Assembly: GCA_963588685.1 (NCBI GenBank)
Contig: CAVAID010000001.1
Location: 10,304 to 74,303, forward strand
Direction of reading: 5' to 3'
Source of the DNA: a bacterium
GTDB taxonomy: Bacteria > Bacteroidota > Bacteroidia > Bacteroidales > UBA932
Length of the DNA stretch: 64,000 nt
In this document: in pieces, positions 11,610 to 36,791 of the stretch
How positions within the stretch are numbered: the first letter of the stretch is position 1
How the letters are laid out: each line of letters starts with the position of its first letter
Made by a program: the position numbers and the translations under genes
The notes under the pieces: generated by a model
What the model saw: only the letters and a program-made list of their open reading frames with translations
Told to the model about the DNA's origin: nothing
Database searches by the model: none

Positions 11610-11633
11610 GCCATTACAGGACATATTTATACG

Positions 11634-11756
11634 ACAAATCCCCGCTGTCTCAGCGGGGATTTACGGTTAGTTAGTAGTGTATTACCTTATAGAAGGTTAA
11701 TTATTGTTGGTTAGATGGCTCCAGTCGAAACCGGAGCTAGAGTTGTTTCATTTCCG
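11634..11756 (-). ncRNA. Candidate sRNA 1 (C/A-rich core)
   Basis: Minus-strand ATTG-N19-TACCTTTG promoter (-7 at 11761-11768), stem GCUCCGGU-UUCG-ACUGGAGC (11718-11737), terminator; only a 4-codon ORF; ends approximate. Confidence 0.6.
11636..11662. terminator. Hairpin terminator shared by pyrG and a convergent sRNA
   Basis: AAATCCCCGCTG-TCT-CAGCGGGGATTT perfect stem; short U-tracts on both strands. Confidence 0.7.
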
Positions 11757-11884
11757 ATGACAAAGGTACGCACTATTTTTGGATATGCAATACTTTTTCA
11801 AAATTTTTTCAAAGAGTTTTGCTTTGTTATTAAAAATATTTAAAAACTCAAGTCGCGAAAAAGCAGCAAAACGGCATTACAGAG

Positions 11885-12571
11885 CTATTTGTCCGCGTTT
11901 TTGAGCAATTCCGGCCGGAGCAGTCTGGTACGTTCCAGGGCCTGTTCGTCCTGCCAGGCGCGGATCAGCTTGGGGTTGCCGCTGAGCAGCACGTCCGGCA
12001 CCTTCCATCCGTTGAACTCCGCCGGCCTCGTATAGACGGGAGGGGAGAGCAGATTGTCCTGGAAGCTGTCGGAGAGGGCGGAGGTCTCGTCGGTGAGCGC
12101 CCCCGGTATCAGCCGCACTATGGAGTCCGCGAGCAGCGCCGCAGGGATTTCACCTCCGCTCACCACATAGTCCCCGACGGAGATTTCGCGGGTGATCAGG
12201 TGCTCGCGGATGCGGTGGTCGATGCCCTTGTAATGGCCGCAGAGTATCATTATGTTCTCCTTAAGGGACAGGGAGTTGGAGATGCCCTGGTTGAGCCTCT
12301 CGCCGTCGGGCGACATATAGATTATTTCATCGTAGCTCCGCTGCGCCTTGAGCTCCTCCATCATCCTGAAGACCGGCTCGATGGTCATCACCATCCCGGC
12401 GTCCCCGCCGTAGCTGTAGTCGTCCACGTTCTTCCTCGGCCCGAGCCCGTATTTGCGCAGGTCGTGCACCTCGATTTCGACGAGTCCCTTCTTTATCGCG
12501 CGTCCCACGATGGAGTGGGAAAGGGGGCTGTCGAGGAGTTCCGGCACTACCGTAAGTATGTCAATTCTCAT
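11885..12571 (-). CDS. trmD: tRNA (guanine37-N1)-methyltransferase
   Basis: [38 protein letters not shown]. Confidence 0.97.
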
Positions 12572-12669
12572 AAATACTATATTTTCTGCAAAGTTAGTGA
12601 CTCTTTCGGGGTTTTTCCAATCAAAATTAGTATATTTGTGAGTTATAACAAACCATTAACTCTGATATT

Positions 12670-14541
12670 ATGAGCGAAAACATCATCCCTGAAAAGATCC
12701 AAGAGGTCGTTTCAGATGTAGCCGAAAAGCTTGCCGACAAGGTTGACGAACTCTCCGACAAGGCCGAAGAGCTCTCTGACAAGCTTAGCGATAAGGTCGA
12801 AGAAATCTCCGACAAACTTAGCGACAAAGCCGAAGAGCTCAGCGACAAGCTGGGTGACAAGGCCGAAGAAGTCTCCGACAAGGCCGAAGACCTGTCAGAC
12901 AAGTCGCTTGCCGAGCTTTCCGACCTCTTTGTCAAACTGAAGTCCGGCGCGGACAGCATGACGCGCTCCAAGGAGGCCGAAGCCATCAAATCGGCTTTCT
13001 ACAAGCTCCTCGCCAAACTCAAGGGGGAGAGCGGAGCCGAGTCCGAGAGCAGCATCGACAACCCGTTCGAGGCTGTGGAGCAGAACTTCAAGGCAATGTA
13101 TGCCGACTACAAGAAGGAGCGTGCCGAGTTCAACAGGCAGCAGGATGAGCAGCGCGAGGCCAACAAGCAGAAGAAGGAGGCCATCATCGAGGAGCTCAAG
13201 ACTCTTGTCGAGGGCCAGGAGGATGTCAGCGCCCGGTTCCCTCTGTTCAGAGATATCCAGAACCGTTGGAGAGAGGCAGGCCCGGTGCCTGTCAAGGACT
13301 ACCGCGATATCAACGACAGATATCAGCTCTATGTAGAGAAGTTCTACGACCTGGTCAAGATCAACCGCGACCTGCGCGACCTTGACTTCCGCAAGAACCT
13401 CGAGGCCAAGGAGGCGTTCTGCGAGGCGGCGGAGAAGCTTGCCGAGAACGAGAATGTCGTAGCCGCATTCCACGAGCTCCAGAAGCTGCACGAGCAGTGG
13501 AAGGAGTACGGTCCGGTGGCCAAGGAGAAGAGGGATGACATCTGGAACCGCTTCAAGGCGGCCACGGCCGTCATAAACAAGAAATATCAGGCTCACTTCG
13601 AAGGCCTCAAGGAGCAGCAGGAGGAGAACCTCGAGAAGAAGAAGGCCCTCTGCGAGAAGCTTGAGGAGATTGCCGCCAGGGAGGTGACTTCCTCCTCCGA
13701 GTGGAACGCCCTCTCCAAGGAGATTGAGGACCTGCAGGCCGAGTGGCGCAAGATCGGCTTCGCCACCAAGAAGGAGAACCAGAAGATATACGACCGCTTC
13801 CGTGCCGCGTGCGACGCGTTCTTCGGCAAGAAGAGGGAGTTCTATTCTTCAATAAAGGACAATATGACCGCCAACCTCGAGAAGAAGCAGGCTCTCATCG
13901 AGCAGGCCGAGGCTCTCAAGGACAGCACCGAGTGGAAGAAGACCACCGACCAGTTCATCGCCCTGCAGAAGCAGTGGAAGGAAATCGGGGCGGTGCCTCG
14001 CAAGAAGTCCGACCAGCTCTGGAAGAAGTTCCGCGCCGCCTGCGATGAGTTCTTCGCAAACCGTGACGCCAACGCCGCCCCTGAGAACGACTTCTACTCC
14101 AACCTCAAGGCGAAGAAGAAGCTTGTCGAGGAAATCCTCGCCTTTGAGCCGGGTAATGACGAGACAGCAAATGCAGAGGCTATGCGCGGCTTCAGCGAGC
14201 GCTGGCAGGGTATAGGCCATGTGCCGTTCAAGGAGAAGGACAAGCTCAACGACGAATACCGCGAGGCGATGCAGCAGAAGTTCCCTCTCTTCGCCACAAG
14301 GCAGAGGGGCTCAGGTCAGGGCCGCAGCTCAGCTCCGGCAAGCGCCAGAGATACTCTCATCAGCAAGTATCGCGCTCTGCAGCAGAACATTACTACCTAC
14401 GAGAACAATATAGGATTTTTCTCTGCTTCCAAGAACAGTGAACCGCTCATTAAGCAGATGCAGCAGAAGATAGATCAGGCGAAGGAGGAGCTTCGTGAGC
14501 TTGAGGCCAAGATTCGTAAAGCAGAGGAGGAAGAGAAATAA
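12670..14541 (+). CDS. DUF349 domain-containing protein with N-terminal tandem repeats
   Basis: Repeated W..GPV/IGxVP...W..F..A helical units; directly upstream of yidC. Confidence 0.85.
   Translation: MSENIIPEKIQEVVSDVAEKLADKVDELSDKAEELSDKLSDKVEEISDKLSDKAEELSDKLGDKAEEVSDKAEDLSDKSLAELSDLFVKLKSGADSMTRSKEAEAIKSAFYKLLAKLKGESGAESESSIDNPFEAVEQNFKAMYADYKKERAEFNRQQDEQREANKQKKEAIIEELKTLVEGQEDVSARFPLFRDIQNRWREAGPVPVKDYRDINDRYQLYVEKFYDLVKINRDLRDLDFRKNLEAKEAFCEAAEKLAENENVVAAFHELQKLHEQWKEYGPVAKEKRDDIWNRFKAATAVINKKYQAHFEGLKEQQEENLEKKKALCEKLEEIAAREVTSSSEWNALSKEIEDLQAEWRKIGFATKKENQKIYDRFRAACDAFFGKKREFYSSIKDNMTANLEKKQALIEQAEALKDSTEWKKTTDQFIALQKQWKEIGAVPRKKSDQLWKKFRAACDEFFANRDANAAPENDFYSNLKAKKKLVEEILAFEPGNDETANAEAMRGFSERWQGIGHVPFKEKDKLNDEYREAMQQKFPLFATRQRGSGQGRSSAPASARDTLISKYRALQQNITTYENNIGFFSASKNSEPLIKQMQQKIDQAKEELRELEAKIRKAEEEEK
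12724..12905 (+). repeat. Coding tandem repeat (SDKAEEL / SDKLSDK, 7- and 11-aa units)
   Basis: KLADKVDELSDKAEELSDKLSDKVEEISDKLSDKAEELSDKLGDKAEEVSDKAEDLSDK. Confidence 0.8.
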
Positions 14542-16400
14542 TGGACAAGAATTCGGTTATCGGATTTATTCTCATTGCCCTGATATTCATAGGTTTCACT
14601 GCATTCCAGTCCAACCGTGCACGCAAATATGCGGAGCTTCAGGCCCAGCAGGACTCCATAGCGCTCGCCCAGATGCCGCAGCAGATAATGGATGCTGTGG
14701 ATTCGCTGAATGCGCTTGAGGCTTCTCCGGCAACGGACGCCCTCTCCGCTTCTCAGGCAATCTACAAGGATTCGCTCCTCGAGGCGGCTTCCAAGTCAGA
14801 GGGCAGCATCGTTACCCTCGAGAACGATGTGCTCGAGTTCAAGCTCACGACCAAGGGCGCGCAGCCTTACTCCGTGAGGCTCAAGGACTACCGCAATTAC
14901 GACAGCACCGACCTCTACCTTTTCAGGCCTGGCAAGGCTGACTATTCCGTCAGCGTATATGCGGGCGAATACATCCAGACCAAGGACTTCAATTTCGAGG
15001 TCGCCTCTCTGACGGACTCATCCGTGGTGATGAGGCTTCCGTTCGCGGGCGGCGGATATATCGAGCAGAAATACACCCTTCTTGCTGACAGCTACCGCGT
15101 TGACAACCAGCTCTCCTTCGTGGGGATGCAGGGCGTCATACCGCGCAATGTCAGCTCCGTGGACATAGATTTCGGCATGACCATGCCGCGCATGGAGAAG
15201 GGCTACAAGAACGAGACCCAGTACTCCAAGCTCGACTACTATTTCGACGGCGACAAGAAGCCTGTCGAGATCGGTCGCGGCCGCAGCGCATCCAAGAGGG
15301 TGGAGTCCAAGCTCAGCTGGTTCGCTTTCCAGCAGCAGTTCTTCTCCGCGATCGTGCGCGCCCCGCAGCAGTTCTCGTCCGGCGAAGTCAGCGTCGATTT
15401 CTTCAAGCAGGATGACCCTGAGCGCAACCTCATGACCTGCAGCGCCCTGATGCGCGCCGAGCTGGGCAGGGGAGACACCGTGATTCCGCTGGAGTTCTAC
15501 TTCGGCCCGAACCACTTCCAGACGCTCAAGAGCTATGGCCAGAAATACGAGAAGATCATCCCTCTGGGAGGCTGGCTTGTGGGCTGGTTTACGAAGTATG
15601 CCATCATTCCGATGTTCAACTTCTTCAACCGCTTCATCAGCAACTTCGGCATCATCATCCTTCTGATGACCATCGTCATCAAGCTGGTTGTGTTCCCGCT
15701 GACCTACAAGTCCTACGCTTCATCGGCCAAGATGAGCGCGCTGAAGCCTGAGCTGGACAAGCTCAACGCCAAGTTCCCTCACACCGACAACCAGCAGGAG
15801 ATGCTCAAGAAGCAGCAGGCCACGATGGACCTCTACAAGAGGGCGGGAGTCAGCCCGATGGGCGGATGTCTGCCTATGCTGCTGACCTTCCCTATACTCT
15901 GGGCGATGTTCCGCTTCTTCCCTGCGTCCATCGAGCTGCGTCAGCAGTCCTTCCTCTGGTGCCATGACCTCTCCGCCTACGATTCCATCATCGACTACGG
16001 CACGAGGATTCCGATCTTCGGAGACCACCTCTCCCTCTTCGCCCTGCTGATGGCCGTGACCATGTGGATTTACTCCAAGTTCACAATGTCCACCCAGCCT
16101 AACGCCAACGACCCGAGCGCGGCTTCGATGAGGTTCATGACGCTGTGGATGATGCCTATAATGATGTTCTTCATCTGCAACAGCCTCTCCGCAGCCCTCA
16201 GCTACTACTACCTGCTCTCCCAGCTGATCTCCATACTTCAGACCTGGCTGATCCGCAAGTCCATCAACAAGGACGCCATCCTCGAGAAAGTGCGCGCCTC
16301 CGAGGGCAAGCCTCTGCCTAAGAGCAAGTGGCAGCAGCGCCTCGAGGAAGCGCAGAAGCTCCAGGAGCAGCAGATGCGTCAGCAGCAGAAGCGCCGCTAA
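14541..16400 (+). CDS. yidC: Membrane protein insertase YidC
   Basis: N-terminal TM, large periplasmic domain, FYFGP, GGCLPML, ELRQQSFLW..DLS. Confidence 0.96.
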   Translation: MDKNSVIGFILIALIFIGFTAFQSNRARKYAELQAQQDSIALAQMPQQIMDAVDSLNALEASPATDALSASQAIYKDSLLEAASKSEGSIVTLENDVLEFKLTTKGAQPYSVRLKDYRNYDSTDLYLFRPGKADYSVSVYAGEYIQTKDFNFEVASLTDSSVVMRLPFAGGGYIEQKYTLLADSYRVDNQLSFVGMQGVIPRNVSSVDIDFGMTMPRMEKGYKNETQYSKLDYYFDGDKKPVEIGRGRSASKRVESKLSWFAFQQQFFSAIVRAPQQFSSGEVSVDFFKQDDPERNLMTCSALMRAELGRGDTVIPLEFYFGPNHFQTLKSYGQKYEKIIPLGGWLVGWFTKYAIIPMFNFFNRFISNFGIIILLMTIVIKLVVFPLTYKSYASSAKMSALKPELDKLNAKFPHTDNQQEMLKKQQATMDLYKRAGVSPMGGCLPMLLTFPILWAMFRFFPASIELRQQSFLWCHDLSAYDSIIDYGTRIPIFGDHLSLFALLMAVTMWIYSKFTMSTQPNANDPSAASMRFMTLWMMPIMMFFICNSLSAALSYYYLLSQLISILQTWLIRKSINKDAILEKVRASEGKPLPKSKWQQRLEEAQKLQEQQMRQQQKRR

Positions 16401-16404
16401 CTCT

Positions 16405-17082
16405 ATGATTAAGGAGAATATAGATAAAATTTTATGCGAACTGCCACCGGAGGTAAAACTGGTGGCAGTTTCCAAATTCCACCCTCTCGACTCCATAATG
16501 GAGGCGTACCGGGGCGGGCAACGCCGCTTTGCTGAGAACAGGCCGCAGGAGTTTGCGAAGAAATTCGAGACCCTGCACGGCGAGATGGGGGTGCCGCGCT
16601 CGGAGATAGAGTGGCATTTCATCGGACATCTCCAGACCAATAAGCTTAAACTCGTCCTGCCTTATGCCGACCTTGTGCAGTCGGTTGACAGTCAGCATCT
16701 TCTGGATGCCATAAACGATTGGGGCAAGGCGAATGACAAGATTGTTAACATCCTGCTGGAGCTCCACATCGGCGCGGAGGAGACCAAGCAGGGCTTCGTG
16801 GAGGAGGAGATTCTGGACCTTCTCTTCAGGGCCGACTCCTACCGCAATGTCCGCTTCTGCGGGCTGATGGGGATGGCGACCCACACCGACAACGAGGAGG
16901 ATATCCGCGCCGATTTCGGACGTATCAAGGCTTTCTTCGATTATCTCCGCGACCTCTTCCCCGAGCTGGAGGACTTCCGCGAACTCTCCATCGGCATGTC
17001 CGAGGACTGGCGCATCGCCGTAGAATACGGCGCCACCATAGTCCGCATCGGCACCGCCATCTTCGGTCCGAGGGAGTATTAA
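16405..17082 (+). CDS. yggS: YggS-family PLP homeostasis protein
   Basis: LVAVSKF, WHFIGHLQTNK, LSIGMSEDW, VRIGTAIFG. Confidence 0.93.
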   Translation: MIKENIDKILCELPPEVKLVAVSKFHPLDSIMEAYRGGQRRFAENRPQEFAKKFETLHGEMGVPRSEIEWHFIGHLQTNKLKLVLPYADLVQSVDSQHLLDAINDWGKANDKIVNILLELHIGAEETKQGFVEEEILDLLFRADSYRNVRFCGLMGMATHTDNEEDIRADFGRIKAFFDYLRDLFPELEDFRELSIGMSEDWRIAVEYGATIVRIGTAIFGPREY

Positions 17083-18218
17083 CCCTTCATCTCTGCGATC
17101 ATAGCAGCGGCGACTTTGCGGGAGGCGCCGCTGCCGCCGAGGGACTCGCGGATGAGGGAGTAGTCGGAGAGCATCTGAGTGCGGTAGGTCTCGTCTTCGA
17201 GCAGGCGCCTCACTTCGGCGGTGAGGCCTGTAGGGTTGAAGTCGTCCTGGATCATTTCCCTGAAGGCCATCTTGCCGAGGCAGAGGTTACCGAGCGAGAT
17301 GTATGAGATATGGCTCATTACCCTGAGGATATACTTGGCCGCGAGGTAGGTGAGGCGGGAGGTGTTCCAGCCCACCACCTGAGGGGTGCCGATTAGGGCC
17401 GCTTCCAGGGAGGCGGTGCCGGAGTTGATGACGGCGGCGTCAGCGTATTTGAGTATGTCGTAGGTGCGTCCGAAGATGAGCTTCATATTGCTCCTGCCGG
17501 CTATGAAAGCACTGTAGTCGCTCTCGGAGCGGGCCGGGGCGCCTGCAATAACGAATTGATAATCTGTGTATTGCGGCAGGGCGGAGAGATTGTCCGCAAG
17601 GGCTGTAAGCACCGGCATCATCCTCGAAATCTCAGCCTTGCGCGAGCCGGCGAGCAGGGCTATGTACTTCCCCTCGACAGGGCGGCTGAACTCGTGGGCA
17701 TCGACCGCATCGACGAGAGGGTTGCCCTCATATATGAAAGGTATGCCCTTCCGGGTGAAATACGGGATTTCGAACGGGAAGACTATGAAGAGCTTGTCCA
17801 CCCAGGCCTTGAGCTTGCGGTTGCGTCCCTCGCGGGAGGCCCAGGTCTTGGGGGCGATGTAGTAGAATACCTTTATATGGTGAGTGTGGCAGAACCGGGC
17901 AATCTTCATATTGAAGCCCGGGTAGTCGATGAGAATCACAACATCAGGCTTCCACGCGAGGATGTCCTCCTTGCAGCGGCGGATATTGCCGAGCAGCCTG
18001 AAGCCCTTGGAGAGCACTTCGGTGAGGCCCATCACGGCGCCGTCGCGGTAGTCCTGCACCAGGGTGGCGGGGGAGTGCGACTCCTCTGCGGCCGCGGACA
18101 TCATCCCGCCTCCCCAAAATCGGAACTCCGCTTCCGGGTCTTCGGCGGCGAGGCCGCGCATCAGATTGCTGCCGTGCAGGTCGCCGGAGGCTTCTCCCGC
18201 TATAAGATAGTATCGCAT
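17079..18218 (-). CDS. lpxB: Lipid-A-disaccharide synthase
   Basis: IAGEASGDLHG, IDYPGFN, GNPL, SGTASLE. Confidence 0.95.
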   Translation of the reverse strand: MRYYLIAGEASGDLHGSNLMRGLAAEDPEAEFRFWGGGMMSAAAEESHSPATLVQDYRDGAVMGLTEVLSKGFRLLGNIRRCKEDILAWKPDVVILIDYPGFNMKIARFCHTHHIKVFYYIAPKTWASREGRNRKLKAWVDKLFIVFPFEIPYFTRKGIPFIYEGNPLVDAVDAHEFSRPVEGKYIALLAGSRKAEISRMMPVLTALADNLSALPQYTDYQFVIAGAPARSESDYSAFIAGRSNMKLIFGRTYDILKYADAAVINSGTASLEAALIGTPQVVGWNTSRLTYLAAKYILRVMSHISYISLGNLCLGKMAFREMIQDDFNPTGLTAEVRRLLEDETYRTQMLSDYSLIRESLGGSGASRKVAAAMIAEMKG

Positions 18219-19024
18219 AGGCTGTTGAGCGCTTGCCTGTCGGTGTTGTCGATGTTCTGCGGGGTCACGGTGATGTAGCCCTCCTCCAGCAGATGGTGGT
18301 CGGCCGGATAGACATTGTCCCCGTTGTCGGTAAAGTCGCCCGCCATTACATAGACCTCTTCTCCCGGCTGGATATTGTCAAGGTAGGCCTGAGCCTCGCT
18401 GTCGGGAGTCCTGCCTTTCTCTTCGAGGAATTCGCTGTAAACCTTGTATTCCCGCTCCCAGTGCCCGTAGCCCATATGGCAGAACTTGACGCCCTTGATT
18501 TCGCTAGCCGGGACGGCCGGGAAGTTGATGTTGTAGAAGAGCCCGTAATGCCACTCGCTGCCGAGCAATTTCTCCAGGATGCCGGGCAGCAGGGCTTCCA
18601 CTGCCGAAAAGTCGGCGTCGGGGTTGAAAGTGTCGAGGCTCACTCCGATGGACGGGATGCCGTTGACCGCGCCCTCCATCGCCGCTCCGATGGTTCCGGA
18701 ATAAACTGAAGCTGTGGCGGCGTTGCTGCCGTGGTTGACCCCGCTGACCACCAGGTCGGCCTTCTCCGGCCAGAGGATGTTGTCCACCGCATACTTGACG
18801 CAGCTGGCCGGGGTGCCGTCGAGGTACCAGCGGCTCTCTGTATCGGAGGAGGATAGTTTCTTGACCGCAATCGGCTTGTATCCCATAGTAACGGCCATCG
18901 ACATCCCGCTCTGCGGTTTCTTGGGCGCGACCACCGTCAGGGTGCCGAATCTGCGCATTACGCGCACCAGAGCCTGCAGTCCGCGGGCCTCGAAACCGTC
19001 ATCGTTGGTTATGATTATTCGCAT
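18200..19024 (-). CDS. surE: 5'/3'-nucleotidase SurE
   Basis: TNDDG, GTPASCV, VSGVNHG.N, YSGTIGAAMEG. Confidence 0.95.
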   Translation of the reverse strand: MRIIITNDDGFEARGLQALVRVMRRFGTLTVVAPKKPQSGMSMAVTMGYKPIAVKKLSSSDTESRWYLDGTPASCVKYAVDNILWPEKADLVVSGVNHGSNAATASVYSGTIGAAMEGAVNGIPSIGVSLDTFNPDADFSAVEALLPGILEKLLGSEWHYGLFYNINFPAVPASEIKGVKFCHMGYGHWEREYKVYSEFLEEKGRTPDSEAQAYLDNIQPGEEVYVMAGDFTDNGDNVYPADHHLLEEGYITVTPQNIDNTDRQALNSLCDTIL

Positions 19025-19134
19025 ATTGAAGTATCTGATTTATTTTTTACAAAGATAATTGATTTTCAAGAGAATTTTTGATAAATTTGCACCGCTTTTT
19101 GAAAGGAAGCTTACGGTTAGGAAGTTTAGAATAA

Positions 19135-20163
<1,029 letters not shown>

Positions 20164-20186
20164 TTTCCGCTTCATTGCGACAACTT

Positions 20187-20218
20187 AAAGAGCCGGCTGA
20201 TTTCAGCCGGCTCTTTTT
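20187..20218 (+). terminator. Intrinsic terminator of gap (probably bidirectional)
   Basis: AAAGAGCCGGCTGA-TT-TCAGCCGGCTCTTTTT. Confidence 0.85.
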
Positions 20219-20235
20219 GTATGTATTTTCGTGAT

Positions 20236-21426
20236 TTACAGCATCTCCTTCAGCCTCTTGAGGGCCTCGAGGAAGTAGTAGTCGGCGTAGGTAAGAGGCA
20301 CATCGACCTCGGAATTGTTCTTGAGGTAGCCGACGCTGTGCTTGAGAAGGAAACCTCCGTTGGTGCCCGGCTCTGCCATGTACTCCGGACCGGAGAGGGT
20401 TCGCAGCTGGCGGATGGCAAGAGCCTTCCAGCGCTCGGCGTCAGCGCCCGTATCATAAGTGCTCAGCTCCAGGAAGCCTGAAGCCATGATGGCGGCGGCG
20501 GAAGCGTCGCGAGGCACATTCGGAATGTCGGGGTCATCGAAATCCCAGTAAGGGACTCCGTCCTCCGGAAGCCTCGGGTGGTTCGCGATGAAGGCGGCGA
20601 TATGCTTGGCCTGCTCGAGGAACTCCTCTTTGCCTGTCATCCTGTACATCATGGTGTATCCGTAGAGGCCCCATGCCTGTCCGCGGGCCCAGGCGGAGTC
20701 ATCGGAGTAGCCCTGAAGGGTCTGGCGGTATTCCACCTCTCCGGTCTCGGGATTGTAGGATACAACATGGTAGGTGCTGTAGTCCGGGCGGAAATGGTTG
20801 CGGATCGTGGTCTCGGCATGGCTGAGGGCGATATTGATGAGGCTGCTGTCGGCGGTCTCCTTGCCCGCCCACATCAGCATCTCGAGATTCATCATATTGT
20901 CGATGATGACAGGGTACTTCCAGTTGTCGCGCGGGTTCCAGGACATTATCGTGCCGGTCTTCCCGTTGAAGCGGGTGGCGAGGGAGTGCGCGGCATTTAC
21001 GACCATGGTCTTGTATTTCTCGTCTCCGGTGAGCCTGTAGGCGTTGCCGGCGCTGCAGAACACCATGAATCCGAGGTCGTGGGTGCTGGTGAGCCACTGG
21101 GCCGGGGCGACCCTTTCGGTGAACTGCTCCGCGTAGCTGCGGATTTCCTGATCTTCAGGATAATATTCGCTGAGCTCCCAGAGCGTGCCCGGGAAGAATC
21201 CGCATATCCAGGAGCCGTAGCCGGCGGTCTTGAGCTCTCCGTTCTCGTAGGTGCGCGGAAGCTTGCCCTCCACCGGGAGAGCGTCCTTGGCAAGGATCAT
21301 GTATTGTCCGCGGGCCCTCTCGAAAGAGCTGTCAATCATTTGATTGAGTTCGGCTGTTTCGCTTTTGCAGGCGGACAGGGCAGCCAGTGCGGCTGCAAAC
21401 AGGATGGTAAGTTTGCTTGGTTTCAT
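20236..21426 (-). CDS. GH88 unsaturated glucuronyl hydrolase, lipoprotein
   Basis: LSAC lipobox; HDLGF, IIDNMMNL, WARGQAW, DASAAAI, YADYYFLEAL. Confidence 0.9.
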   Translation of the reverse strand: MKPSKLTILFAAALAALSACKSETAELNQMIDSSFERARGQYMILAKDALPVEGKLPRTYENGELKTAGYGSWICGFFPGTLWELSEYYPEDQEIRSYAEQFTERVAPAQWLTSTHDLGFMVFCSAGNAYRLTGDEKYKTMVVNAAHSLATRFNGKTGTIMSWNPRDNWKYPVIIDNMMNLEMLMWAGKETADSSLINIALSHAETTIRNHFRPDYSTYHVVSYNPETGEVEYRQTLQGYSDDSAWARGQAWGLYGYTMMYRMTGKEEFLEQAKHIAAFIANHPRLPEDGVPYWDFDDPDIPNVPRDASAAAIMASGFLELSTYDTGADAERWKALAIRQLRTLSGPEYMAEPGTNGGFLLKHSVGYLKNNSEVDVPLTYADYYFLEALKRLKEML

Positions 21427-21878
21427 TATTGATTAAGTATATTTTTCACGATGCCCGAGATGACGCGGCCCTCGGCAAGACCTGCGAGCTCCCTGGTCGC
21501 CACGCCCATCACCTTGCCCATATCGGACGGCTTGGACGCGCCCACGCGGGCGATGATTTCACGGACCTTGTCTTCGACTTCGGCCTCGCTGAGCTGCTTT
21601 GGCAGATAGGTGTCGAGCACTGCGGCCTCGTTCAGCTCATTGTCCGCAAGCTCCTGCCTGCCCGCCGCCACATACTGTTCGGCGGCTTCCTTGCGCTGCT
21701 TGGCGAGTTTCTGGATGAGCTTCACTATATCGCTGTCGGTGAGTTCCTTGCTCCCGCCTTCGGAGGTCTTGGCCAGCAGAATAGCTGACTTGATGGAACG
21801 GACCGCGTTCAGACGGACGGTGTCCTTGGCCTTCATAGCGGCCATGATGTCTTTTTGAATCTGTGCTTCAAGTGCCAT
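21426..21878 (-). CDS. GatB/YqeY domain protein
   Basis: AMKAKD..RL, YLPKQLSE, DMGKVMG; ATG at 21878. Confidence 0.9.
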   Translation of the reverse strand: MALEAQIQKDIMAAMKAKDTVRLNAVRSIKSAILLAKTSEGGSKELTDSDIVKLIQKLAKQRKEAAEQYVAAGRQELADNELNEAAVLDTYLPKQLSEAEVEDKVREIIARVGASKPSDMGKVMGVATRELAGLAEGRVISGIVKNILNQ

Positions 21879-22003
21879 GGTAAAGAGATTTTTGAGAAAC
21901 ACAAATATACGAGAAAAATGACGATTGTTAAAGACTAAATCACTATATTTGTAACTGCGGCCCGAGCGGGCCGTGCCGTTATTTGTCAGATAAAGTACTA
22001 TAT

Positions 22004-26836: not shown

Positions 26837-26838
26837 GG

Positions 26839-28062
26839 TTACTGCTCCGCGTTTATAAGCTCCAGCAGGCGGTCAATCGCCTCGCTGTCGGGCACATGCC
26901 TGAGCACCGGTTCTCCCTTTCTGTAGATGGAGACCCTGCCTCCGCCTTCGCCCACATAGCCCCAGTCGGCATCGGCCATCTCGCCGGGGCCGTTGACTAT
27001 GCATCCCATCACGGCTATGACCATTCCCTTGAGGTGGGAGGTGCGCGCCTTGACTTCCTCGAATGTCTTCTGGAGGTCGTACATCGTGCGCCCGCAGCCC
27101 GGGCAGGCGATGTATTCCGGCTTGTAGAAGCGGCGTCGCGCGGCCTGCATTATCTCGTCCTTTAGGTATTCGGAGAGTCCGGCGCTGTCGGGGATGGAGT
27201 CTATCTCCCTGCGGAGAAGTTTCGGACCCCACTGCACCGCTGCCTTGAGGGTTTCGTCTCCGCCCTCGCCGGTAGCGAGGAAGCGTGCCACAGGAAGTTC
27301 GGCCACGGGCGGCTCGGTAAGGGATACGCGTATGGTGTCGCCGATGCCCTCCTGGAGCAGCGCGGCAATCCCGACGCAGGACTTGATGCGCCCGCTGTCG
27401 CCGTTGCCGGCTTCCGTAACTCCCAGGTGCAGAGGGAATACCGTACCGGCGCTCTGCATCATCGCCACGAGCTCCCGGTATGCCTCGGTCATCACTATGG
27501 TATTGCTCGCCTTGAGTGAAACCACCACATTGTAGAACTTGGCATCGGTGCACATCTTCACCCATTCCATAGCGGCCTGCGCCATCGCGTGCGGGGTGTT
27601 GCCGTAGAGGTTGGTGATGTAGGAGCCGAGCGAGCCGTGGTTAAGGCCTATGCGGATTGCAGTGCCGTGGGCACGGCATACTTCTATGAAGCGGGCGAAT
27701 TCCTCGCGGGCCTTGGCGTGGTCAGGATGAAAGTTGCCCGGGTTGATGCGGACCTTCTCCACAACTTCTGCCGCGGCAATCGCGGTTTGGGAGGAGAAAT
27801 GTATGTCGGCGACCAGGGGAGTGCTGCACCCTGCTGCGCGCAGCCTGGCCTTGATCTCCTTGAGATGGGGGATGTCCTGCAGGCCCGGCACCGTGATGCG
27901 TATCAGTTGCGAGCCCGCCGCGGCGAGTTCGAGGCACTGAGCCACCGTCGCCTCCACATCGGAGGTGTGGGTATTGCACATCGTCTGTATAACGATAGGG
28001 TTGTCGCCCCCGATGACGAGGGAATCACCTACTTTTACCGGAATCGTCCTGAGCCTTTCCAT
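26839..28062 (-). CDS. ispG: 4-hydroxy-3-methylbut-2-en-1-yl diphosphate synthase (short form)
   Basis: PLVADIHF, RINPGN, HLGVTEAG, GDTIRVSLT, CPGCGR..GCIVNGPGE. Confidence 0.95.
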   Translation of the reverse strand: MERLRTIPVKVGDSLVIGGDNPIVIQTMCNTHTSDVEATVAQCLELAAAGSQLIRITVPGLQDIPHLKEIKARLRAAGCSTPLVADIHFSSQTAIAAAEVVEKVRINPGNFHPDHAKAREEFARFIEVCRAHGTAIRIGLNHGSLGSYITNLYGNTPHAMAQAAMEWVKMCTDAKFYNVVVSLKASNTIVMTEAYRELVAMMQSAGTVFPLHLGVTEAGNGDSGRIKSCVGIAALLQEGIGDTIRVSLTEPPVAELPVARFLATGEGGDETLKAAVQWGPKLLRREIDSIPDSAGLSEYLKDEIMQAARRRFYKPEYIACPGCGRTMYDLQKTFEEVKARTSHLKGMVIAVMGCIVNGPGEMADADWGYVGEGGGRVSIYRKGEPVLRHVPDSEAIDRLLELINAEQ

Positions 28063-28867
28063 ATACTATATTGTATGCTTCCTGTTTGATTTCTTTGCGG
28101 GTCTTGCCGTTGCGTTTGGAGAGCTGGAAATGCAGCCCCACCGTGGCGATGATGTCCAGAGGGTAGGCGTAGCGGTAGTAGTAGCTGCTGTTGTAGTCCG
28201 GGTCATACAGATTGGACCAGGACCAGCGCAGCAGGCAGTTGAAGTGTATCTCCACCGGGTCGAACATCAGCGCGAAGCCCACTCCGCCCTGGAATCCGTA
28301 GTCGAGCTGGTGCTCGTAGGTGCGGAATTTGTCGGTCCATTCCGGGTTGAGATTCGGGCCGGAACGCTTGATGCTGCGCCTGTAACCTCCATATACTCCG
28401 GCGTTTGCCATTATTTTGCCGGGGTCGAAGTCCGCGTGGATCTGCATCATGGCGGGGACTTCCACCACCTGCATAGAGCACCAGGTCGCCCCATCCACAT
28501 CCGCTGAATTGCCGGTCTCCTTGTCGGCGCGGAAGGTGTATCCCTCGTTGCCCATTGCGGCACCCAGCACCAGAGCGAAGTACGGCAGGTTGTCGAAGAG
28601 CTTGCTGAATTTGGTGTAGGTCACGGAGATATAATTCGGCGCGAAGACATAGCTGCGGTTGTGCTTGCTCGGGCTGAAGTAGGTGTTGGAGAAGGTCACG
28701 CCGTAGTTGACCCCGATCAGGGAGTAGTCGTTGATGAGGCGCTTCTTGACCACGACCGTAGTGTCGAGGGTGAGCGCCGGGTCAGCGGTGGCGCTGTCCT
28801 GTGCCGATGCCGCAAGAACTGTGGCCAGGAGGCCGAAAATCAGTATGCAGAGTCTTTTCGCTTTCAT
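28025..28867 (-). CDS. Outer-membrane beta-barrel (porin-family) protein
   Basis: Signal peptide; alternating aromatic/Gly strands (DYGFQGGVGF, TVGLHFQL). Confidence 0.6.
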   Translation of the reverse strand: MKAKRLCILIFGLLATVLAASAQDSATADPALTLDTTVVVKKRLINDYSLIGVNYGVTFSNTYFSPSKHNRSYVFAPNYISVTYTKFSKLFDNLPYFALVLGAAMGNEGYTFRADKETGNSADVDGATWCSMQVVEVPAMMQIHADFDPGKIMANAGVYGGYRRSIKRSGPNLNPEWTDKFRTYEHQLDYGFQGGVGFALMFDPVEIHFNCLLRWSWSNLYDPDYNSSYYYRYAYPLDIIATVGLHFQLSKRNGKTRKEIKQEAYNIVYGKAQDDSGKSR

Positions 28868-30651
28868 TTGAAGAGTTCGCTGAGGTTGATGGTCTGGCTG
28901 AGTTCGGCTCCGGACGGGATGTCGAGGAACTTGTTTCCGTCCTGCTCGTAGAAGCGCACCTTCTCCGGCTGCTTATGGCCCAGTATCGAGCCCGAATCCA
29001 CTATGGAGTTGCGGTTGCTGTCCTCCGTGATGCGGATGCAGTATTTGCCTTCGCTAAGGTAAGGGAAGGACAGAGTCCTGTCTGAATCAATCACATAGGA
29101 GCGGAGCACCTTGTCCCGCTTCTCGCCCATAAGGTCCACGATGTACTTCCCGTCCACGCCGGTCATCACCGCCTCGAGGGTGCTGAGCTTCTCGTCGGTA
29201 GGGAGCTTGCACTTGACTTCCAGGCTGTCGGACCAGAATCCGTTGATGTCGCGGAAGGCCCGGTAAGGCAGCTTGACTATGTATTCGTATCCCGGGAGGA
29301 GCTTGTCCTTCTGGCGGATTACATATTTTCGGAGATTGGTGCTGTCCCTTTCCACGCTGAACTCCATCTCCTGCTCGGTCTGGCGAGGGGTGATGGCGGT
29401 GAACTTGACGGAGTCGAATTCCTCCCGGATTATCGGGTTGCGGAATTCCAGCTCGAAGCCGTTCTGCTCCACTGTCTTAGGGTCGGCCTTGAGAGTGAGC
29501 ACGCAGGTGGTGTCCTCCTGCTTGATGGACTTGCGGGAGCGCTTGGAATAGGTGCGCTTTTCGTTGGCGAGGGCCAGCTTGACCTGCTCGGTTTCGGGCC
29601 TGAGCACGCCGAGGGAGTCGGTCTTGAGATAGGTGACGGCTATCTTCATCGTGTCCGGCGCGGCGCGGCGGGAGTTGATCCAGAGCTCAAGGCTGTCCCG
29701 CTCGATGTTGAACTGGCTGATTATCTGTGACTGGCGGTAGTCATTGATGGTGATGGAGTCGATGACCGCGTCATGGGCCATGAAGGTGAGGTAGGCGGAG
29801 CGCTCGGAAGTGCGCTCCTTATTGACCATATACTGCTTGGACGGCTTCTCCCTGAAGAGGTTGAGCTCGTGCTCGCTGCGCCTCGCAAGGCAGGCCAGGG
29901 TGTCCTTCATGTCGTAGCGGAGGATTTCCTTGACGCTGTCGTTGGCAGTCAGCACCGGCTTTATCAGTGAATCTATGAATCCCACCAGCTCGGTCTCGGG
30001 GTTGAAGATATTGTCGTTGTCCTTGTCGGTGATGGCGTAGAGGCGGTAGGTCGTGTCCTTGATGAACGGCAGGGCGAAGAAGCCCCAGTCGTCGGTCTTG
30101 ACGGCTGCGTAAGGGCGGCTGCGGTAGATGGCGGAGTCCGCGAGGTCGGTGTGCAGCAGCACCGTGGCCCCCTTGACCGGGGCGAGGGTGTTGCAGTCCT
30201 GCACCGTGCCCGTAATCATCATTGAGTCAATGCTTTCCCCGGTAGAGAACACATAGGTGTAGCCGGCGAACATATTGCCTTCGTTGGCGTCGGCGATGGC
30301 GTCGGTGAAGCTGATGGTGTAGGTGGTGTTCGGCTCAAGAGGCTCTTCGGCACTGACTATCAGGTTCTTGCCTCTAAGCCTGGACTTGAGCGGCTTCTGC
30401 TGCGGAGGGGAGAGGAAGATGTTGTTGCTCTGCTTGATGGTGACGTATTCGTTGAATTTGAACACGAACTTCGCCCCCTCCAGCGGCACTCCCACGGCGC
30501 CCGGAAGCGGATTGATGTCCACTATGTAAGGGGGAATGGTGTCCTTGTCGCCGCCGGTAGGGGACTGGGTGGTGTTGGCGCAGGAATGCGTGAACATCAT
30601 CGGGACGAATACGGCGAGCACGGCCAGGCAGAGCGGTATAAATCTTTTCAT
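28864..30651 (-). CDS. Lipoprotein with Ig-like (Big_5-type) domain
   Basis: Start at MKRFIPL (30651); HSCA...PTGGDKDTIPP, FNEY, LEPNTTYTI.F..AIAD.NEGN. Confidence 0.8.
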   Translation of the reverse strand: MKRFIPLCLAVLAVFVPMMFTHSCANTTQSPTGGDKDTIPPYIVDINPLPGAVGVPLEGAKFVFKFNEYVTIKQSNNIFLSPPQQKPLKSRLRGKNLIVSAEEPLEPNTTYTISFTDAIADANEGNMFAGYTYVFSTGESIDSMMITGTVQDCNTLAPVKGATVLLHTDLADSAIYRSRPYAAVKTDDWGFFALPFIKDTTYRLYAITDKDNDNIFNPETELVGFIDSLIKPVLTANDSVKEILRYDMKDTLACLARRSEHELNLFREKPSKQYMVNKERTSERSAYLTFMAHDAVIDSITINDYRQSQIISQFNIERDSLELWINSRRAAPDTMKIAVTYLKTDSLGVLRPETEQVKLALANEKRTYSKRSRKSIKQEDTTCVLTLKADPKTVEQNGFELEFRNPIIREEFDSVKFTAITPRQTEQEMEFSVERDSTNLRKYVIRQKDKLLPGYEYIVKLPYRAFRDINGFWSDSLEVKCKLPTDEKLSTLEAVMTGVDGKYIVDLMGEKRDKVLRSYVIDSDRTLSFPYLSEGKYCIRITEDSNRNSIVDSGSILGHKQPEKVRFYEQDGNKFLDIPSGAELSQTINLSELFK

Positions 30652-30655
30652 CGCG

Positions 30656-32851
30656 TCAAATGTCTGTGCGGACGACATCCTGGATGCCGTCGATTTTCTT
30701 GAGTCCCCCGACCATGTCTTCCAGGATCTTCTTGTCCTTGACCAGCAGCTCGATGGTGCCTTCGAAGAGCCCGCCGTCCACATTGAGCACCAGCTTGCGC
30801 ATATTGATGCCCAGGGTCTTGGAGATGAAGCCTGAGATGTCGTTGAGCAGACCTATGCGGTCCAGCCCCTTGAGGGAGATGCGTATAGGGTATTCCTGCT
30901 CGTTGGAAGTCCACTGCGGGGCGACGAGCCTGTTGCCGTAGCGGCTGGCGAGCCTCTGGGCCTCCTCGCAGGACTTCTTGTGCACGATGACGGTGTTGTC
31001 GTCGGTGAGGAAGCCTACCACAGGGTCGCCCGGGATAGGGTTGCAGCATTCCGCCATCCTGTAGCGGACATTGTCGCCGCCGGACTTGATGACGAATTCC
31101 TTTTTACGCTTGCCCTCGCCGGAAGAGAGGCTGTTCTCGTCGATGACGGCCTTGAACTGCTCCGGCCCCAGGATGCCAAGACCCACTCTGAACCAGAGCT
31201 CCTCGACATCGCGTATCTGGTTGAAGTCCAGGAACTTCTTGAGCAGGGCATGGGTGTTCTTGAATCCCATCATGTGGATGCGCTCCTCATAGAGCTTCTT
31301 GCCCTCGGCGGCGATGGCCTCCTTGTCGGAGCGGAAATACTCGATTACCTTGCTGCGGGCGGAGCGGGTCTGGAGGAACTGCAGCCACTCCTTCTTGGGC
31401 GATGCGCTGGCGGCGGTGATGATCTCGACCTGGTCTCCGGACTTGAGCGTCTGGGAGAGCGGGACGAGCTTCATGTTGACCTTGGCAGCAATCGCGGAGT
31501 TGCCGATGTGGGTGTGGATCATGTAGGCGAAGTCGAGGGCGGTGGCACCGTTGAGTATTGAGCGCTGCTCGCCCTTTGGGGTAAACACGACTATCACGGA
31601 GCTGACGAGGTCCTTGTGTATTATGTCGAGCAGCTCCAGCGCGCTCACATCGTCGCTCAGCAGGATGTCCTGCACCTGCTTGAGCCATTTGTCCATCTCG
31701 GAGTCATTCTCGGAGATGTATCCGTCCTTTTTGTAGGCCCAGTGGGCTGCGATGCCCTTCTCGGCTATGTCGTCCATCCTGCGGGAGCGGATCTGCACCT
31801 CCACCCAGAAGCCTGCGTGGCTCATAAGGGTGCAGTGCAGGGCCTCGTAGCCGTTGTTCTTGGGCTGGGATATCCAGTCACGGCGGCGGCTGACGTTCTC
31901 GCGGTAGAGGTTGGTGATGGCTGAGAATATGAGGTAGGCCTGGTCGCGCTCGCTCTGGGGCCCGTCAAGTTTAGGGGTGAATATTATGCGCACTGCGTAG
32001 AGGTCGAATATCTGCTCGAAGCCTACATGCTTGTTGTGCATCTTGTACCAGATCGAGTACGGGGTCTTGATGCGCTTCTTGATTGAGAAGTTGTATCCGG
32101 CGTCCCGGAGCGCCTTGTCAATCGGGGCTATGAACTCGTCTATGTCCTTTTCGCGGGCGGCGGCGTTGCTGTTGATTTTCTCTGTAATGCTCTGGTAGTC
32201 TTCGGGTTCCTTGTACTTGAGCCAGATGTTCTCCATCTCGGACTTGACGGCGTAGAGGCCGAGCCTGTGGGCGAGAGGGATGAATATGAACATGGTCTCG
32301 GAGAGAATCTTGTCCCGCTTGTGCTCCGGCATATATTCTATGGTGCGGCAGTTGTGCAGGCGGTCGGCGAGCTTGATGAGCACCACGCGCACATCGTCGT
32401 TGAGAGTCAGAAGGATGCGCTTGAAGTTCTCCGCCTGGAGGCTCTCAGTGCTGATGGCTTCGCCCTTGCGGTCCTCGTTGTCGAGCACCGTCTTGATCTT
32501 GGTCAGACCGTCCACGATCGAGGCTATCTTGTCGCCGAAGAGGTTGCGTATGTCTTCCACGGTGTAGCTGGTGTCCTCCACGACATCGTGAAGCAGCGCC
32601 GCGCAGATGGACTTGCATCCCAGGCCGATTTCCGACACCACTATCTTCGCCACCTCAATCGGGTGGATAATGTACGGCTCGCCGGAGCGGCGGCGCACGT
32701 TCTTGTGGGCCTGGTTGGCGAACTCAAACGCCTTCTGCACCGTCTCCACCTGCTCCTCGTTGCGGCAGCGCGAGCGCGCCACCTCCATCAGGGAAGCGTG
32801 TTCCTTCTCAATCAGCCTGTAATCGTCCTTTGTGAATTCTGAAAAACTCAT
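30656..32851 (-). CDS. relA: Bifunctional (p)ppGpp synthetase/hydrolase (long RSH)
   Basis: RRSGEPYIIHP, LHDVVED, KLADRLHN, EVQIR, TGS domain, CCNPIPGD, ACT domain. Confidence 0.95.
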   Translation of the reverse strand: MSFSEFTKDDYRLIEKEHASLMEVARSRCRNEEQVETVQKAFEFANQAHKNVRRRSGEPYIIHPIEVAKIVVSEIGLGCKSICAALLHDVVEDTSYTVEDIRNLFGDKIASIVDGLTKIKTVLDNEDRKGEAISTESLQAENFKRILLTLNDDVRVVLIKLADRLHNCRTIEYMPEHKRDKILSETMFIFIPLAHRLGLYAVKSEMENIWLKYKEPEDYQSITEKINSNAAAREKDIDEFIAPIDKALRDAGYNFSIKKRIKTPYSIWYKMHNKHVGFEQIFDLYAVRIIFTPKLDGPQSERDQAYLIFSAITNLYRENVSRRRDWISQPKNNGYEALHCTLMSHAGFWVEVQIRSRRMDDIAEKGIAAHWAYKKDGYISENDSEMDKWLKQVQDILLSDDVSALELLDIIHKDLVSSVIVVFTPKGEQRSILNGATALDFAYMIHTHIGNSAIAAKVNMKLVPLSQTLKSGDQVEIITAASASPKKEWLQFLQTRSARSKVIEYFRSDKEAIAAEGKKLYEERIHMMGFKNTHALLKKFLDFNQIRDVEELWFRVGLGILGPEQFKAVIDENSLSSGEGKRKKEFVIKSGGDNVRYRMAECCNPIPGDPVVGFLTDDNTVIVHKKSCEEAQRLASRYGNRLVAPQWTSNEQEYPIRISLKGLDRIGLLNDISGFISKTLGINMRKLVLNVDGGLFEGTIELLVKDKKILEDMVGGLKKIDGIQDVVRTDI

Positions 32852-32880
32852 TCTTTATATTATTGTCTCCGCCATCCTTG

Positions 32881-34995
<2,115 letters not shown>

Positions 34996-35203
34996 CTAAT
35001 AAACTACAAATTTAGTCAATCTTTTGGATATTTCCTTGCCTGCGGGGGGCGAGTTGCCGGGTCACGGGAAGGGAAGGCACGAACAGCGGCAAAAACCCGG
35101 CAAAAAGCATCGTTGCAGTTGTGAATTTGGCGGATAATCAGTAAATTTGCGAGATTTGTTTTGGAAGAAACTGTTTACTTTAGAAAGTAGTTATTATAAA
35201 AAT

Positions 35204-36436
35204 ATGAAAGATTCAATTATTATTCTCTGCGGCGGCGGCCCTGCTCCGGGAATGAACACTGTCGTTTGTTCTGTCGCCAAGACCTTTTTGAGCAACGGTT
35301 ACAGGGTAATCGGCCTCCACGGCGGCTACAGCGGCCTTTTCTCCAAGAACCCGCGCACTGAGGACATCGACTTCCTCAAGGCGGACTACTATTTCAAGCG
35401 CGGCGGCTCCCATCTCCAGATGAGCCGTTTCAAGCCTACCGACGAGGATTTCGAGAAGAACTTCAACCTCGACCTCTTCAAGGACAACAACATCAAGCTG
35501 CTCGTTACCGTCGGCGGAGATGACACCGCTTCCACGGCCAACCGCATCGCCCTCTTCCTCGAGAGGAAGAAATATCCTATCCGCAACATCCATGTCCCTA
35601 AGACCATCGACAACGACCTTCCTCTGCCGGACAACGCTCCGACCTTCGGCTTCAATTCCGCCAAGAACGAGGGTGCGCACATCGCTTCCACCGTCTATGA
35701 GGACGCCCGCACTTCCGGCAACTGGCTGCTGATCTCCGCAATGGGACGCTCTGCAGGCCACCTTGCGCTCGGCATCGGCGAGGCTACCCACTGCCCGATG
35801 ACCATCATCCCGGAGATGTTCAACAAGACCGACATCACCATCGACAAGATCATCCGCCTCTCCCTTTCCACCATCATCAGGCGCAAGATTCTCGGCATCG
35901 ACTACGGTACCATCGTGGTCGCAGAGGGCGTGTTCCATGACCTCTCCGACGAGGACATCAAGTCGGCCGGCGTGCATATGACCTATGACGAGCACGGACA
36001 CCCGGAGCTCGGCAAGATCTCAAAGTCAGTGCTCTTCGACGAGCTTCTCGAGAAGGCCATGAAGCAGACCCGTCTCAAGGTCAAGACCCGTCCGGTCGAG
36101 ATCGGCTACGACGTGCGTTGCCAGGACCCTGTGGCATTCGACCTTACATACTGCACCGAACTCGCCATGGGAGTCTATGAGCTCTACGCCAAGGGCGAGA
36201 CCGGCTGCATGGTGTATGTGGACAACTACGGCGAGGCCAAGCCTCTCTACCTGCACAACCTGCAGAATGAGGAGGGCAAGATTCCGCCGCGCCGCGTCGA
36301 TATCAACTGCGGTACCGCGAAGAACTACTACGAGCACATCTGCCACTTCATCTCTCCGTCCGACTACGAGGCCGCCAAGGCTTATGTGGACAATCCGGAG
36401 TACTACGATTTCAAGAAAATCCTCGGCTGGGAGTAG
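35204..36436 (+). CDS. Phosphofructokinase, probably PPi-dependent
   Basis: GGGPAPGMN, GGDDT, PKTIDNDL, MGR; ATG at 35204. Confidence 0.9.
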   Translation: MKDSIIILCGGGPAPGMNTVVCSVAKTFLSNGYRVIGLHGGYSGLFSKNPRTEDIDFLKADYYFKRGGSHLQMSRFKPTDEDFEKNFNLDLFKDNNIKLLVTVGGDDTASTANRIALFLERKKYPIRNIHVPKTIDNDLPLPDNAPTFGFNSAKNEGAHIASTVYEDARTSGNWLLISAMGRSAGHLALGIGEATHCPMTIIPEMFNKTDITIDKIIRLSLSTIIRRKILGIDYGTIVVAEGVFHDLSDEDIKSAGVHMTYDEHGHPELGKISKSVLFDELLEKAMKQTRLKVKTRPVEIGYDVRCQDPVAFDLTYCTELAMGVYELYAKGETGCMVYVDNYGEAKPLYLHNLQNEEGKIPPRRVDINCGTAKNYYEHICHFISPSDYEAAKAYVDNPEYYDFKKILGWE

Positions 36437-36461
36437 AATTCTCCCCATGGAATCATATTGG

Positions 36462-36495
36462 GAGGCCGCCCTCAAAAAGGGGCGGTCTCTTTTTT
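36462..36495 (+). terminator. Intrinsic terminator of pfk
   Basis: GAGGCCGCCC...GGGCGGTCTC followed by a T-run. Confidence 0.85.
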
Positions 36496-36640
36496 GGTAC
36501 AATATTTGTCTGAAGACCCAAACGAATGTTGATGCGGCGGCCTTCCGGCCTTGCCGGATACGATCTGTAAAAATTTTGCTTAATTCTAAAGTCCTGATTT
36601 GCAGGGCCTACAAAAATTATTAAAAATTTTTCAAAAAAAA

Positions 36641-36671
36641 TTTGCAGAATTAATTTTTTGTAGTACCTTTG
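36641..36671 (+). promoter_or_regulatory. Consensus Bacteroidota sigma-A promoter with no downstream CDS
   Basis: TTTG-N19-TACCTTTG with A/T tracts upstream. Confidence 0.75.
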
Positions 36672-36674
36672 CAT

Positions 36675-36791
36675 CCGGGTTGAGCAAGTGACCGTTCTGG
36701 CCCATCAACCTATTGGTTATTAGTTTTAGTGTTATTAATTATGTGGTTAGTATGAGTTGTTGCCGAGATGGTCACAACTCATTTCTTTTTT
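36675..36791 (+). ncRNA. Candidate sRNA 2 (G/U-rich core)
   Basis: Promoter above; 5' stem GGTTGA..TCAACC; G/U-rich single strand at 36711-36751; terminator ATGAGTTGT..ACAACTCAT-TTCTTTTTT; ends approximate. Confidence 0.68.

Follow-up and report, generated by a model that had tools for sequence, protein, structure and literature searches.

Covariation within one genus points to pairing between two unlinked candidate small RNAs, a putative G/U-rich regulator and its possible RNA sponge

The window analyzed here is a 64,000-nucleotide stretch (contig CAVAID010000001.1 of assembly GCA_963588685.1, positions 10,304 to 74,303) from a bacterium of the order Bacteroidales, family UBA932. It carries two unlinked candidate small RNA (sRNA) genes with inferred ends: RNA-A, an A/C-rich candidate sponge of approximately 130 nt (11628-11758, minus strand), and RNA-B, a candidate G/U-rich regulator of approximately 118 nt (36674-36792, plus strand). 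At the sequence level, comparison within the source genus established the anatomy of the two loci, their conserved opposite senses, their co-occurrence and their co-variation. Based on the covariation of modelled pairing energies, RNA-A and RNA-B very probably pair with each other. It is also reasonably likely that RNA-A serves as a sponge of RNA-B and that RNA-B targets carbohydrate-uptake mRNAs.

Covariation between the two genes

The complementarity between the 5′ part of RNA-A and the variable 5′ arm of the RNA-B terminator was first seen on reading the homologues. In this genome, the RNA-A segment at 11740-11747 (minus strand) is complementary to positions 36755-36762, in the 5′ arm of the RNA-B terminator hairpin and U tail (36752-36792, plus strand); the co-variation with RNA-A falls on this arm. 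The original prediction for these loci, made from the sequence of this stretch, had described the flanking stems as unrelated, which this complementarity contradicts. RNA-A was extracted from 129 genomes, RNA-B from 143 and both from 119, and 110 genomes were used after nine had been dropped (five without an anchor, two with a short RNA-A and two with a short RNA-B). The extraction of RNA-B rests on the matches listed, with 15 RNA-B matches lying outside them; therefore, some paralogues are missing from the comparison.

The covariation scores are model energies. Across the 110 genomes, the cofolding gain between the RNA-A 5′ part and the RNA-B junction was -12.8 kcal/mol for cognate and -9.7 kcal/mol for non-cognate pairs (0/20000 permutations), and the cognate excess dropped from 3.07 to 0.54 kcal/mol in a control with the variable bases of RNA-B reversed. 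When the 97 genomes that have a single junction type were grouped by RNA-B type, the excess was reached in 0/20000 permutations for 39, 17 and 14 groups and in 25/20000 for nine groups; the grouped reversed control gave 1922-6412/20000, which is not significant. Additionally, of 25 independent pairs taken from a tree, 18 favoured the cognates, four opposed them and three tied (sign test, p 0.002), versus 13 for, 10 against and two ties in the control. This tree, of 89 genomes with a single RNA-B, is a rough one built from the parts of the RNAs that were not under test and not from marker genes. With full-length RNAs from 18 representatives, the cognate excess was reached by 2/20000 permutations.

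Matching changes recur across clades: RNA-B GAGUUGUU is found with RNA-A AACAACUC, and further recurrent RNA-B/RNA-A matches in different clades are GAGUGU/ACACUC, AGCGU/ACGCU and AGAGUG/CACUCU. Over 108 distinct RNA-A/RNA-B pairs, most of the RNA-B core is predicted to be paired, with gaps at approximately five positions, in agreement with the antisense pairing over the core that had been predicted from the single genome. The co-occurrence of homologues and the compensatory changes by which the original prediction was to be judged were both found within the genus.

The RNA-A 5′ end (11748-11755, minus strand), which is paired in the full cofold, may additionally bind the RNA-B terminator at its 3′ arm and U tail. 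This combination showed a cognate excess at the genome level, and at the group level the excess with the U tail was not significant (994/10000). An excess of G-U over A-C mismatches (59 versus 21) was not used as support; the test was discarded because non-cognate pairs, as the control, showed this ratio too and because mutation bias and base composition confound it.

Anatomy of the two loci

Locus 1 sits between the convergent genes pyrG and trmD, and locus 2 lies after the terminator of pfk and is convergent with rluA. The plus strand carries the same sequence blocks in the same order at 11665-11717 and at 36715-36754, as originally noted. The RNA-A promoter (11761-11791, minus strand) consists of a -33 box ATTG at 11791-11788, a 19-nt spacer and a -7 box TACCTTTG at 11768-11761, while that of RNA-B (36641-36671, plus strand) has the perfect -33 box TTTG, a 19-nt spacer and TACCTTTG at 36664-36671. 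These boxes match the TAnnTTTG/-33 consensus of Bacteroidota promoters (PMC7366714). Sigma-70 scans of both loci were uninformative for this promoter type. TAnnTTTG is found upstream, in the sense of the transcript, at 57/57 RNA-A and 164/178 RNA-B loci, and it points back from the 3′ side at 3/57 and 6/178, respectively. At the sequence level, the predicted promoters of like architecture on opposite strands were thereby confirmed, and the conserved opposite senses speak against same-sense paralogues. Judged by these features, RNA-A and RNA-B are candidate stand-alone sRNA genes with promoters of the Bacteroidota type.

On the minus strand, RNA-A continues after its RNA-B-complementary segment with hairpin 1 (11718-11737), which is variable or absent among homologues and loops out of the predicted duplex. 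It is followed by block 1 (11697-11717), predicted to pair with the 3′ half of the RNA-B core (36736-36754), and by hairpin 2 (ACCTT/AAGGT; 11684-11697), which also loops out of the predicted duplex. The insert between the blocks had been proposed to be a hairpin that could loop out, and a hairpin of at least three pairs was found in 113 of 119 distinct spacers. Block 2 (11665-11680), the most conserved 16 nt and identical in 104 of 129 homologues, is predicted to pair with the 5′ half of the RNA-B core. The 3′ hairpin (11636-11662), with two-sided changes at 10 of 13 pairs (23 sequences), is probably a bidirectional terminator common to RNA-A and pyrG, and its U tail is weak in this genome.

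RNA-B begins, on the plus strand, with a 5′ stem-loop at 36677-36711 (36677-36682 with 36706-36711), which some paralogues lack. The near-invariant, C-free 36-nt core follows at 36715-36750 and is predicted to be the seed region from its conservation and its complementarity to susC leaders. Two-sided changes in homologues support the terminators of both RNAs and the RNA-B 5′ stem; neither terminator hairpin was called by a simple terminator scan. With its 3′ arm and U tail (36779-36792), the RNA-B terminator overlaps the stop codon of rluA on the opposite strand, and rluA lies downstream of RNA-B at just 4 of 69 loci.

Distribution and conservation

Homologues were surveyed in 141 genomes of the source genus, whose relatives are named Cryptobacteroides. 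The RNA-B core is present in 135 of them, in one to four copies each; it is invariant in 22/22 aligned sequences and identical in 112 of the 121 collection matches retrieved with its first 20 nt. The RNA-A model matched 123 of the 141 genomes at E 0.01, and 122 of these matches are strong and single copy. Among the matches listed, most of the named records with the RNA-B core are of animal-gut origin and carry the label unclassified Bacteroidales or Candidatus Cryptobacteroides, and the few with other labels may be misbinned. Outside the genus, the RNA-B model matched 0/132 genomes from 28 other genera of the family and 0/149 other genomes of the order, and a three-mismatch pattern gave 3/248 matches, all without RNA-B anatomy. 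RNA-A found only weak matches (27-38 bits) there, in 8/132 family and 4/149 order genomes; nine of 13 such loci were inspected, and all nine matches were terminator-driven. Thus, RNA-A and RNA-B co-occur in one genus.

The neighbouring genes vary in identity and orientation for both RNAs: those of RNA-B (67 upstream, 69 downstream) fall into 47 families, and the 58 downstream genes of RNA-A fall into 36; trmD lies upstream of RNA-A in 32 of 58 loci.

Several RNA-B paralogues depart from this layout. Six promoterless copies (L204, L217, L220, L221, L303 and L433; 6/6, picked by eye) begin only a few bases downstream of a tRNA-Cys gene, which suggests a tRNA-trailer-derived form. Short paralogues (L057, L206, L207, L218 and others) start approximately 3 nt before the core, have no 5′ stem and show a FopS-like layout. 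The core is also found on six IMG/VR contigs in four distinct contexts (L539-L544), whose flanks are only putatively viral; these copies have different 3′ hairpins and would therefore escape the terminator-binding segment of RNA-A. Phage records gave no match to RNA-B, and nine viral matches to the RNA-A 16-nt block, without RNA-A anatomy, were rejected as homologues. At the end of contig G028:C17 (L035), RNA-B is duplicated in inverted orientation and folds back at the terminator, probably an assembly artefact.

The duplex in this genome

In a full-length cofold, approximately 38 intermolecular pairs are predicted. The cofolding gain of -20.2 kcal/mol was equalled by 3/578 full shuffles and 11/531 core shuffles, and the core-only duplex by 112/5000 shuffles; the duplex is moderately better than shuffled controls, the comparison originally proposed for it. 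Among 73,678 genome windows, RNA-A is the top Watson-Crick complement of the RNA-B core, narrowly (29 versus 28), and the second best with the terminator arm added (30 versus 31); the runners-up include 5′ untranslated regions (UTRs). By duplex energy alone, RNA-A is 19th among the non-self windows listed, a scan that does not single it out because the G/U core pairs promiscuously. With such modest shuffle statistics and narrow ranks, the evidence from a single genome is no more than suggestive.

Complementarity of the RNA-B core to susC leaders

FopS is reported to repress susC mRNAs by pairing at their start region (PMC11697453). In this genome, the initiation regions of the 17 full-length susC genes complement the RNA-B core better than those of other genes (17.3 versus 11.8) and better than 728 AT-rich leaders (17.3 versus 13.2); shuffled cores reached this complementarity in 2/200 and 25/2000 cases. 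As raw counts, the top 23 leaders comprise three susC genes and seven other carbohydrate genes, which encode GH10, GH2, GH16, an arabinofuranosidase, a pectinesterase, a sugar MFS transporter and an FGGY kinase. The leaders of an EF-G family gene (L563, G000:C30:4421-6538) and an H+-pyrophosphatase gene (L554, G000:C9:155-2365) were also among the best matches to the core.

Proposed mechanism and alternatives

In the mechanism that we favour, RNA-B would be a trans-acting sRNA whose G/U-rich core covers the A/C-rich initiation regions of carbohydrate-uptake mRNAs, those of susC among them, which would repress these mRNAs. RNA-A would be a dedicated sponge that is expressed from a promoter of its own and mimics such an mRNA leader. 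It would pair along most of the RNA-B core with its two hairpins looped out and on into the base of the RNA-B terminator, a course that the covariation supports, sequestering RNA-B along its seed and opening the base of its terminator stem. RNA-B, sequestered and probably destabilized, would then release its targets. The original proposal of a G/U-rich regulator with a C/A-rich sponge fits the near-invariant RNA-B core, the extra RNA-B copies and the susC leader complementarity.

Several observations weigh against this mechanism or the pairing beneath it. Without grouping, the reversed control departs slightly from zero (-0.54; 18/20000), and junction pairing is weak in genomes G030, G343, G415 and G494 (-3 to -5 kcal/mol) as well as in G455 (-6.5 kcal/mol) and G451 (-7.2 kcal/mol). 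The duplex statistics of the single genome are modest, only moderately better than those of shuffles, and the full-length fold leaves the arm-binding segment of RNA-A unpaired here, its 5′ end pairing with the RNA-B 3′ arm instead. The core had been predicted to be single-stranded in both RNAs; in single-sequence folds this holds for RNA-A, apart from its hairpin, and not for RNA-B, whose core self-pairs by G-U-rich helices (-30.8 versus -25.1 kcal/mol with the core forced open). This internal helix lies in invariant columns and thus has no covariation support. Strong RNA-A matches are lacking in 19 of the 141 genus genomes, 17 of which carry RNA-B. High-scoring leaders are not above shuffles genome-wide (97 versus 79 ± 19; 36/200), and the start codons in the target scan come from our own crude gene caller. 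The word overlap with public RNA runs is 5-7%, and three of the four runs compared cover the RNA-A core through contigs without ends, which are unstranded and from relatives and cannot show transcription.

The two RNAs could also pair to another end, RNA-A stabilizing or maturing RNA-B or both acting as one bipartite RNA complex. Covariation shows pairing and not its outcome, the many predicted intermolecular pairs would suit such a complex, and an RNA partner could fill the chaperone role in a genome in which no RbpB-like protein was found (see below). However, the predicted pairing takes up most of the susC-matching core and would block targeting, and RNA-B is present in one to four copies versus one of RNA-A; we consider this outcome unlikely. 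That RNA-A regulates mRNAs while RNA-B titrates it, or that the action is mutual, is very improbable: the 16-nt block of RNA-A is highly conserved and sponge pairs can destabilize each other (PMC9732341), but RNA-A resembles mRNA leaders and not their complement, as the 5′ UTRs among the runners-up to it indicate, and the long near-invariant core belongs to RNA-B.

The shared plus-strand blocks, together with a G-U over A-C mismatch excess that is not cognate-specific and is confounded by base composition, would suit an RNA-A that is an inverted relic of RNA-B, or a DNA- or protein-binding motif common to both loci, without RNA-RNA pairing. This is improbable, since the RNA-A terminator is homologous genus-wide, indicating one origin, and yet RNA-A tracks clade-specific changes in RNA-B; moreover, the block spacing varies from 14 to 36 nt, the inserts fold and the senses stay opposite. 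Also very improbable are a type I toxin-antitoxin pair and cis-acting leader or 3′ UTR elements of the flanking genes. With trmD so often upstream, RNA-A could also arise from trmD read-through; here, however, both RNAs end facing convergent genes, and their neighbours vary in all orientations. The conserved small toxin open reading frame (ORF) of type I systems was not found in RNA-A, the partner whose ORFs were tallied: no ATG ORF is conserved, and the longest has fewer than five amino acids in 46 of 122 sequences.

Relation to known systems

The seed of GcvB is G/U-rich. The original analogy with GcvB and its sponge SroC is supported as far as the probable sponge role is concerned; SroC itself is a less close counterpart than the sponges of the CrfA/SisA-D and QrrX/Qrr systems, which have their own genes, since SroC is processed from an mRNA. 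By sequence, RNA-A shares with these sponges an independent non-coding gene with a promoter and a terminator and a conserved complementarity to the partner seed. Like RNA-A in its inferred role, SroC and AgvB titrate a global regulator, GcvB; AgvB is phage-encoded (PMC12559287), whereas RNA-A has its own chromosomal promoter.

In the Caulobacter CrfA/SisA-D system (PMC12559287), compared here by description and not by sequence, a sponge from its own gene likewise pairs with the core of an sRNA family, a core that is conserved and single-stranded, and the sRNA represses the mRNA of a TonB-dependent receptor, as predicted for RNA-B, in a carbon-use context. That system is Hfq-assisted, has a 10-nt core and belongs to another phylum, whereas the predicted duplex of RNA-A and RNA-B has approximately 38 pairs along a core of 36 nt, contains hairpins that loop out and extends into the partner terminator. 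In Vibrio, QrrX is a trans-encoded dedicated sponge with extensive seed pairing to the multicopy Qrr1-4 sRNAs and conserved pairing regions (PMC9732341). It differs in its dependence on Hfq and RNase E, in its quorum-sensing role and in its evidence, RIL-seq and compensatory mutants versus natural covariation only.

Rfam gave no gathering-score match in the window and only weak matches at either locus. RNA-B scored 19.8 bits against FopS (RF04319; E 0.62 at 36729-36791), below the gathering cut-off of 56 bits, and RNA-B loci are absent among the genus matches to FopS that were listed; by Rfam score, RNA-B is not a member of FopS. The R1 seed of GibS does not lie at the RNA-B 5′ end, whose core starts approximately 40 nt in, and only short words are common to RNA-B and the Rfam consensus or GibS 5′ oligonucleotide. 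Nevertheless, FopS/GibS resembles RNA-B in its long G/U-rich seed before the terminator, its multiple copies, some of them phage-borne (RF04319; PMC11697453, PMC7366714) as is putatively the case for RNA-B, its susC start regions as targets, predicted for RNA-B, and the short words GUGUU and GGUUA. Unlike FopS/GibS, most RNA-B copies have a 5′ stem-loop. FopS is antagonized by the protein RbpB, and no match to the RRM-1 domain (PF00076) of RbpB-like proteins was found in this genome, which is 97% complete.

A third candidate sRNA, FopS-like, lies outside the window (L454, G000:C15:28968-29041, plus strand). It scores 36.6 bits (cut-off 56), has a promoter and a terminator, is conserved among genomes of the genus, where it has at least two sequence types, and ends in the GGUUA word, as RNA-B does. 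Pairing of this RNA with RNA-A, through block 1, is conceivable; the duplex was equalled by 495/3000 shuffles and does not stand out.

The accessible text of the literature, including PMC10994844, PMC13750123 and 10.1101/2024.04.05.588293, describes no Bacteroidota RNA sponge and no RNA-A/RNA-B pair; sRNA catalogues elsewhere could hold RNA-A or RNA-B. The main text of a 2026 review has no mention of a sponge. PMC13370968 applies the word "sponge" to the protein RbpB. The papers on MasB and SrcF, judged by description rather than by sequence, gave no link to RNA-A or RNA-B in their accessible portions.

Significance

We propose tentatively, and with more doubt than confidence, that RNA-A represents the first Bacteroidota RNA sponge, working without Hfq or RbpB, and that it clamps the whole RNA-B seed, pries open the terminator stem and gates polysaccharide uptake genus-wide. 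It might also titrate the second, FopS-like sRNA, and phage-borne RNA-B copies with other terminators might escape its grip. If this holds, an RNA would do for RNA-B what the protein RbpB does for FopS, and the pair would show that an sRNA and its sponge can be found from between-gene covariation alone. Few Bacteroidota sRNAs have been characterized so far, and the host genus comprises abundant, mostly uncultured bacteria of the gut and rumen. The natural compensatory changes between these unlinked non-coding RNA genes are ready-made swaps for experiments that do not require culture of the host. If real, a regulator and sponge that act on susC leaders throughout the genus would add an RNA-RNA switch to polysaccharide utilization in these bacteria.

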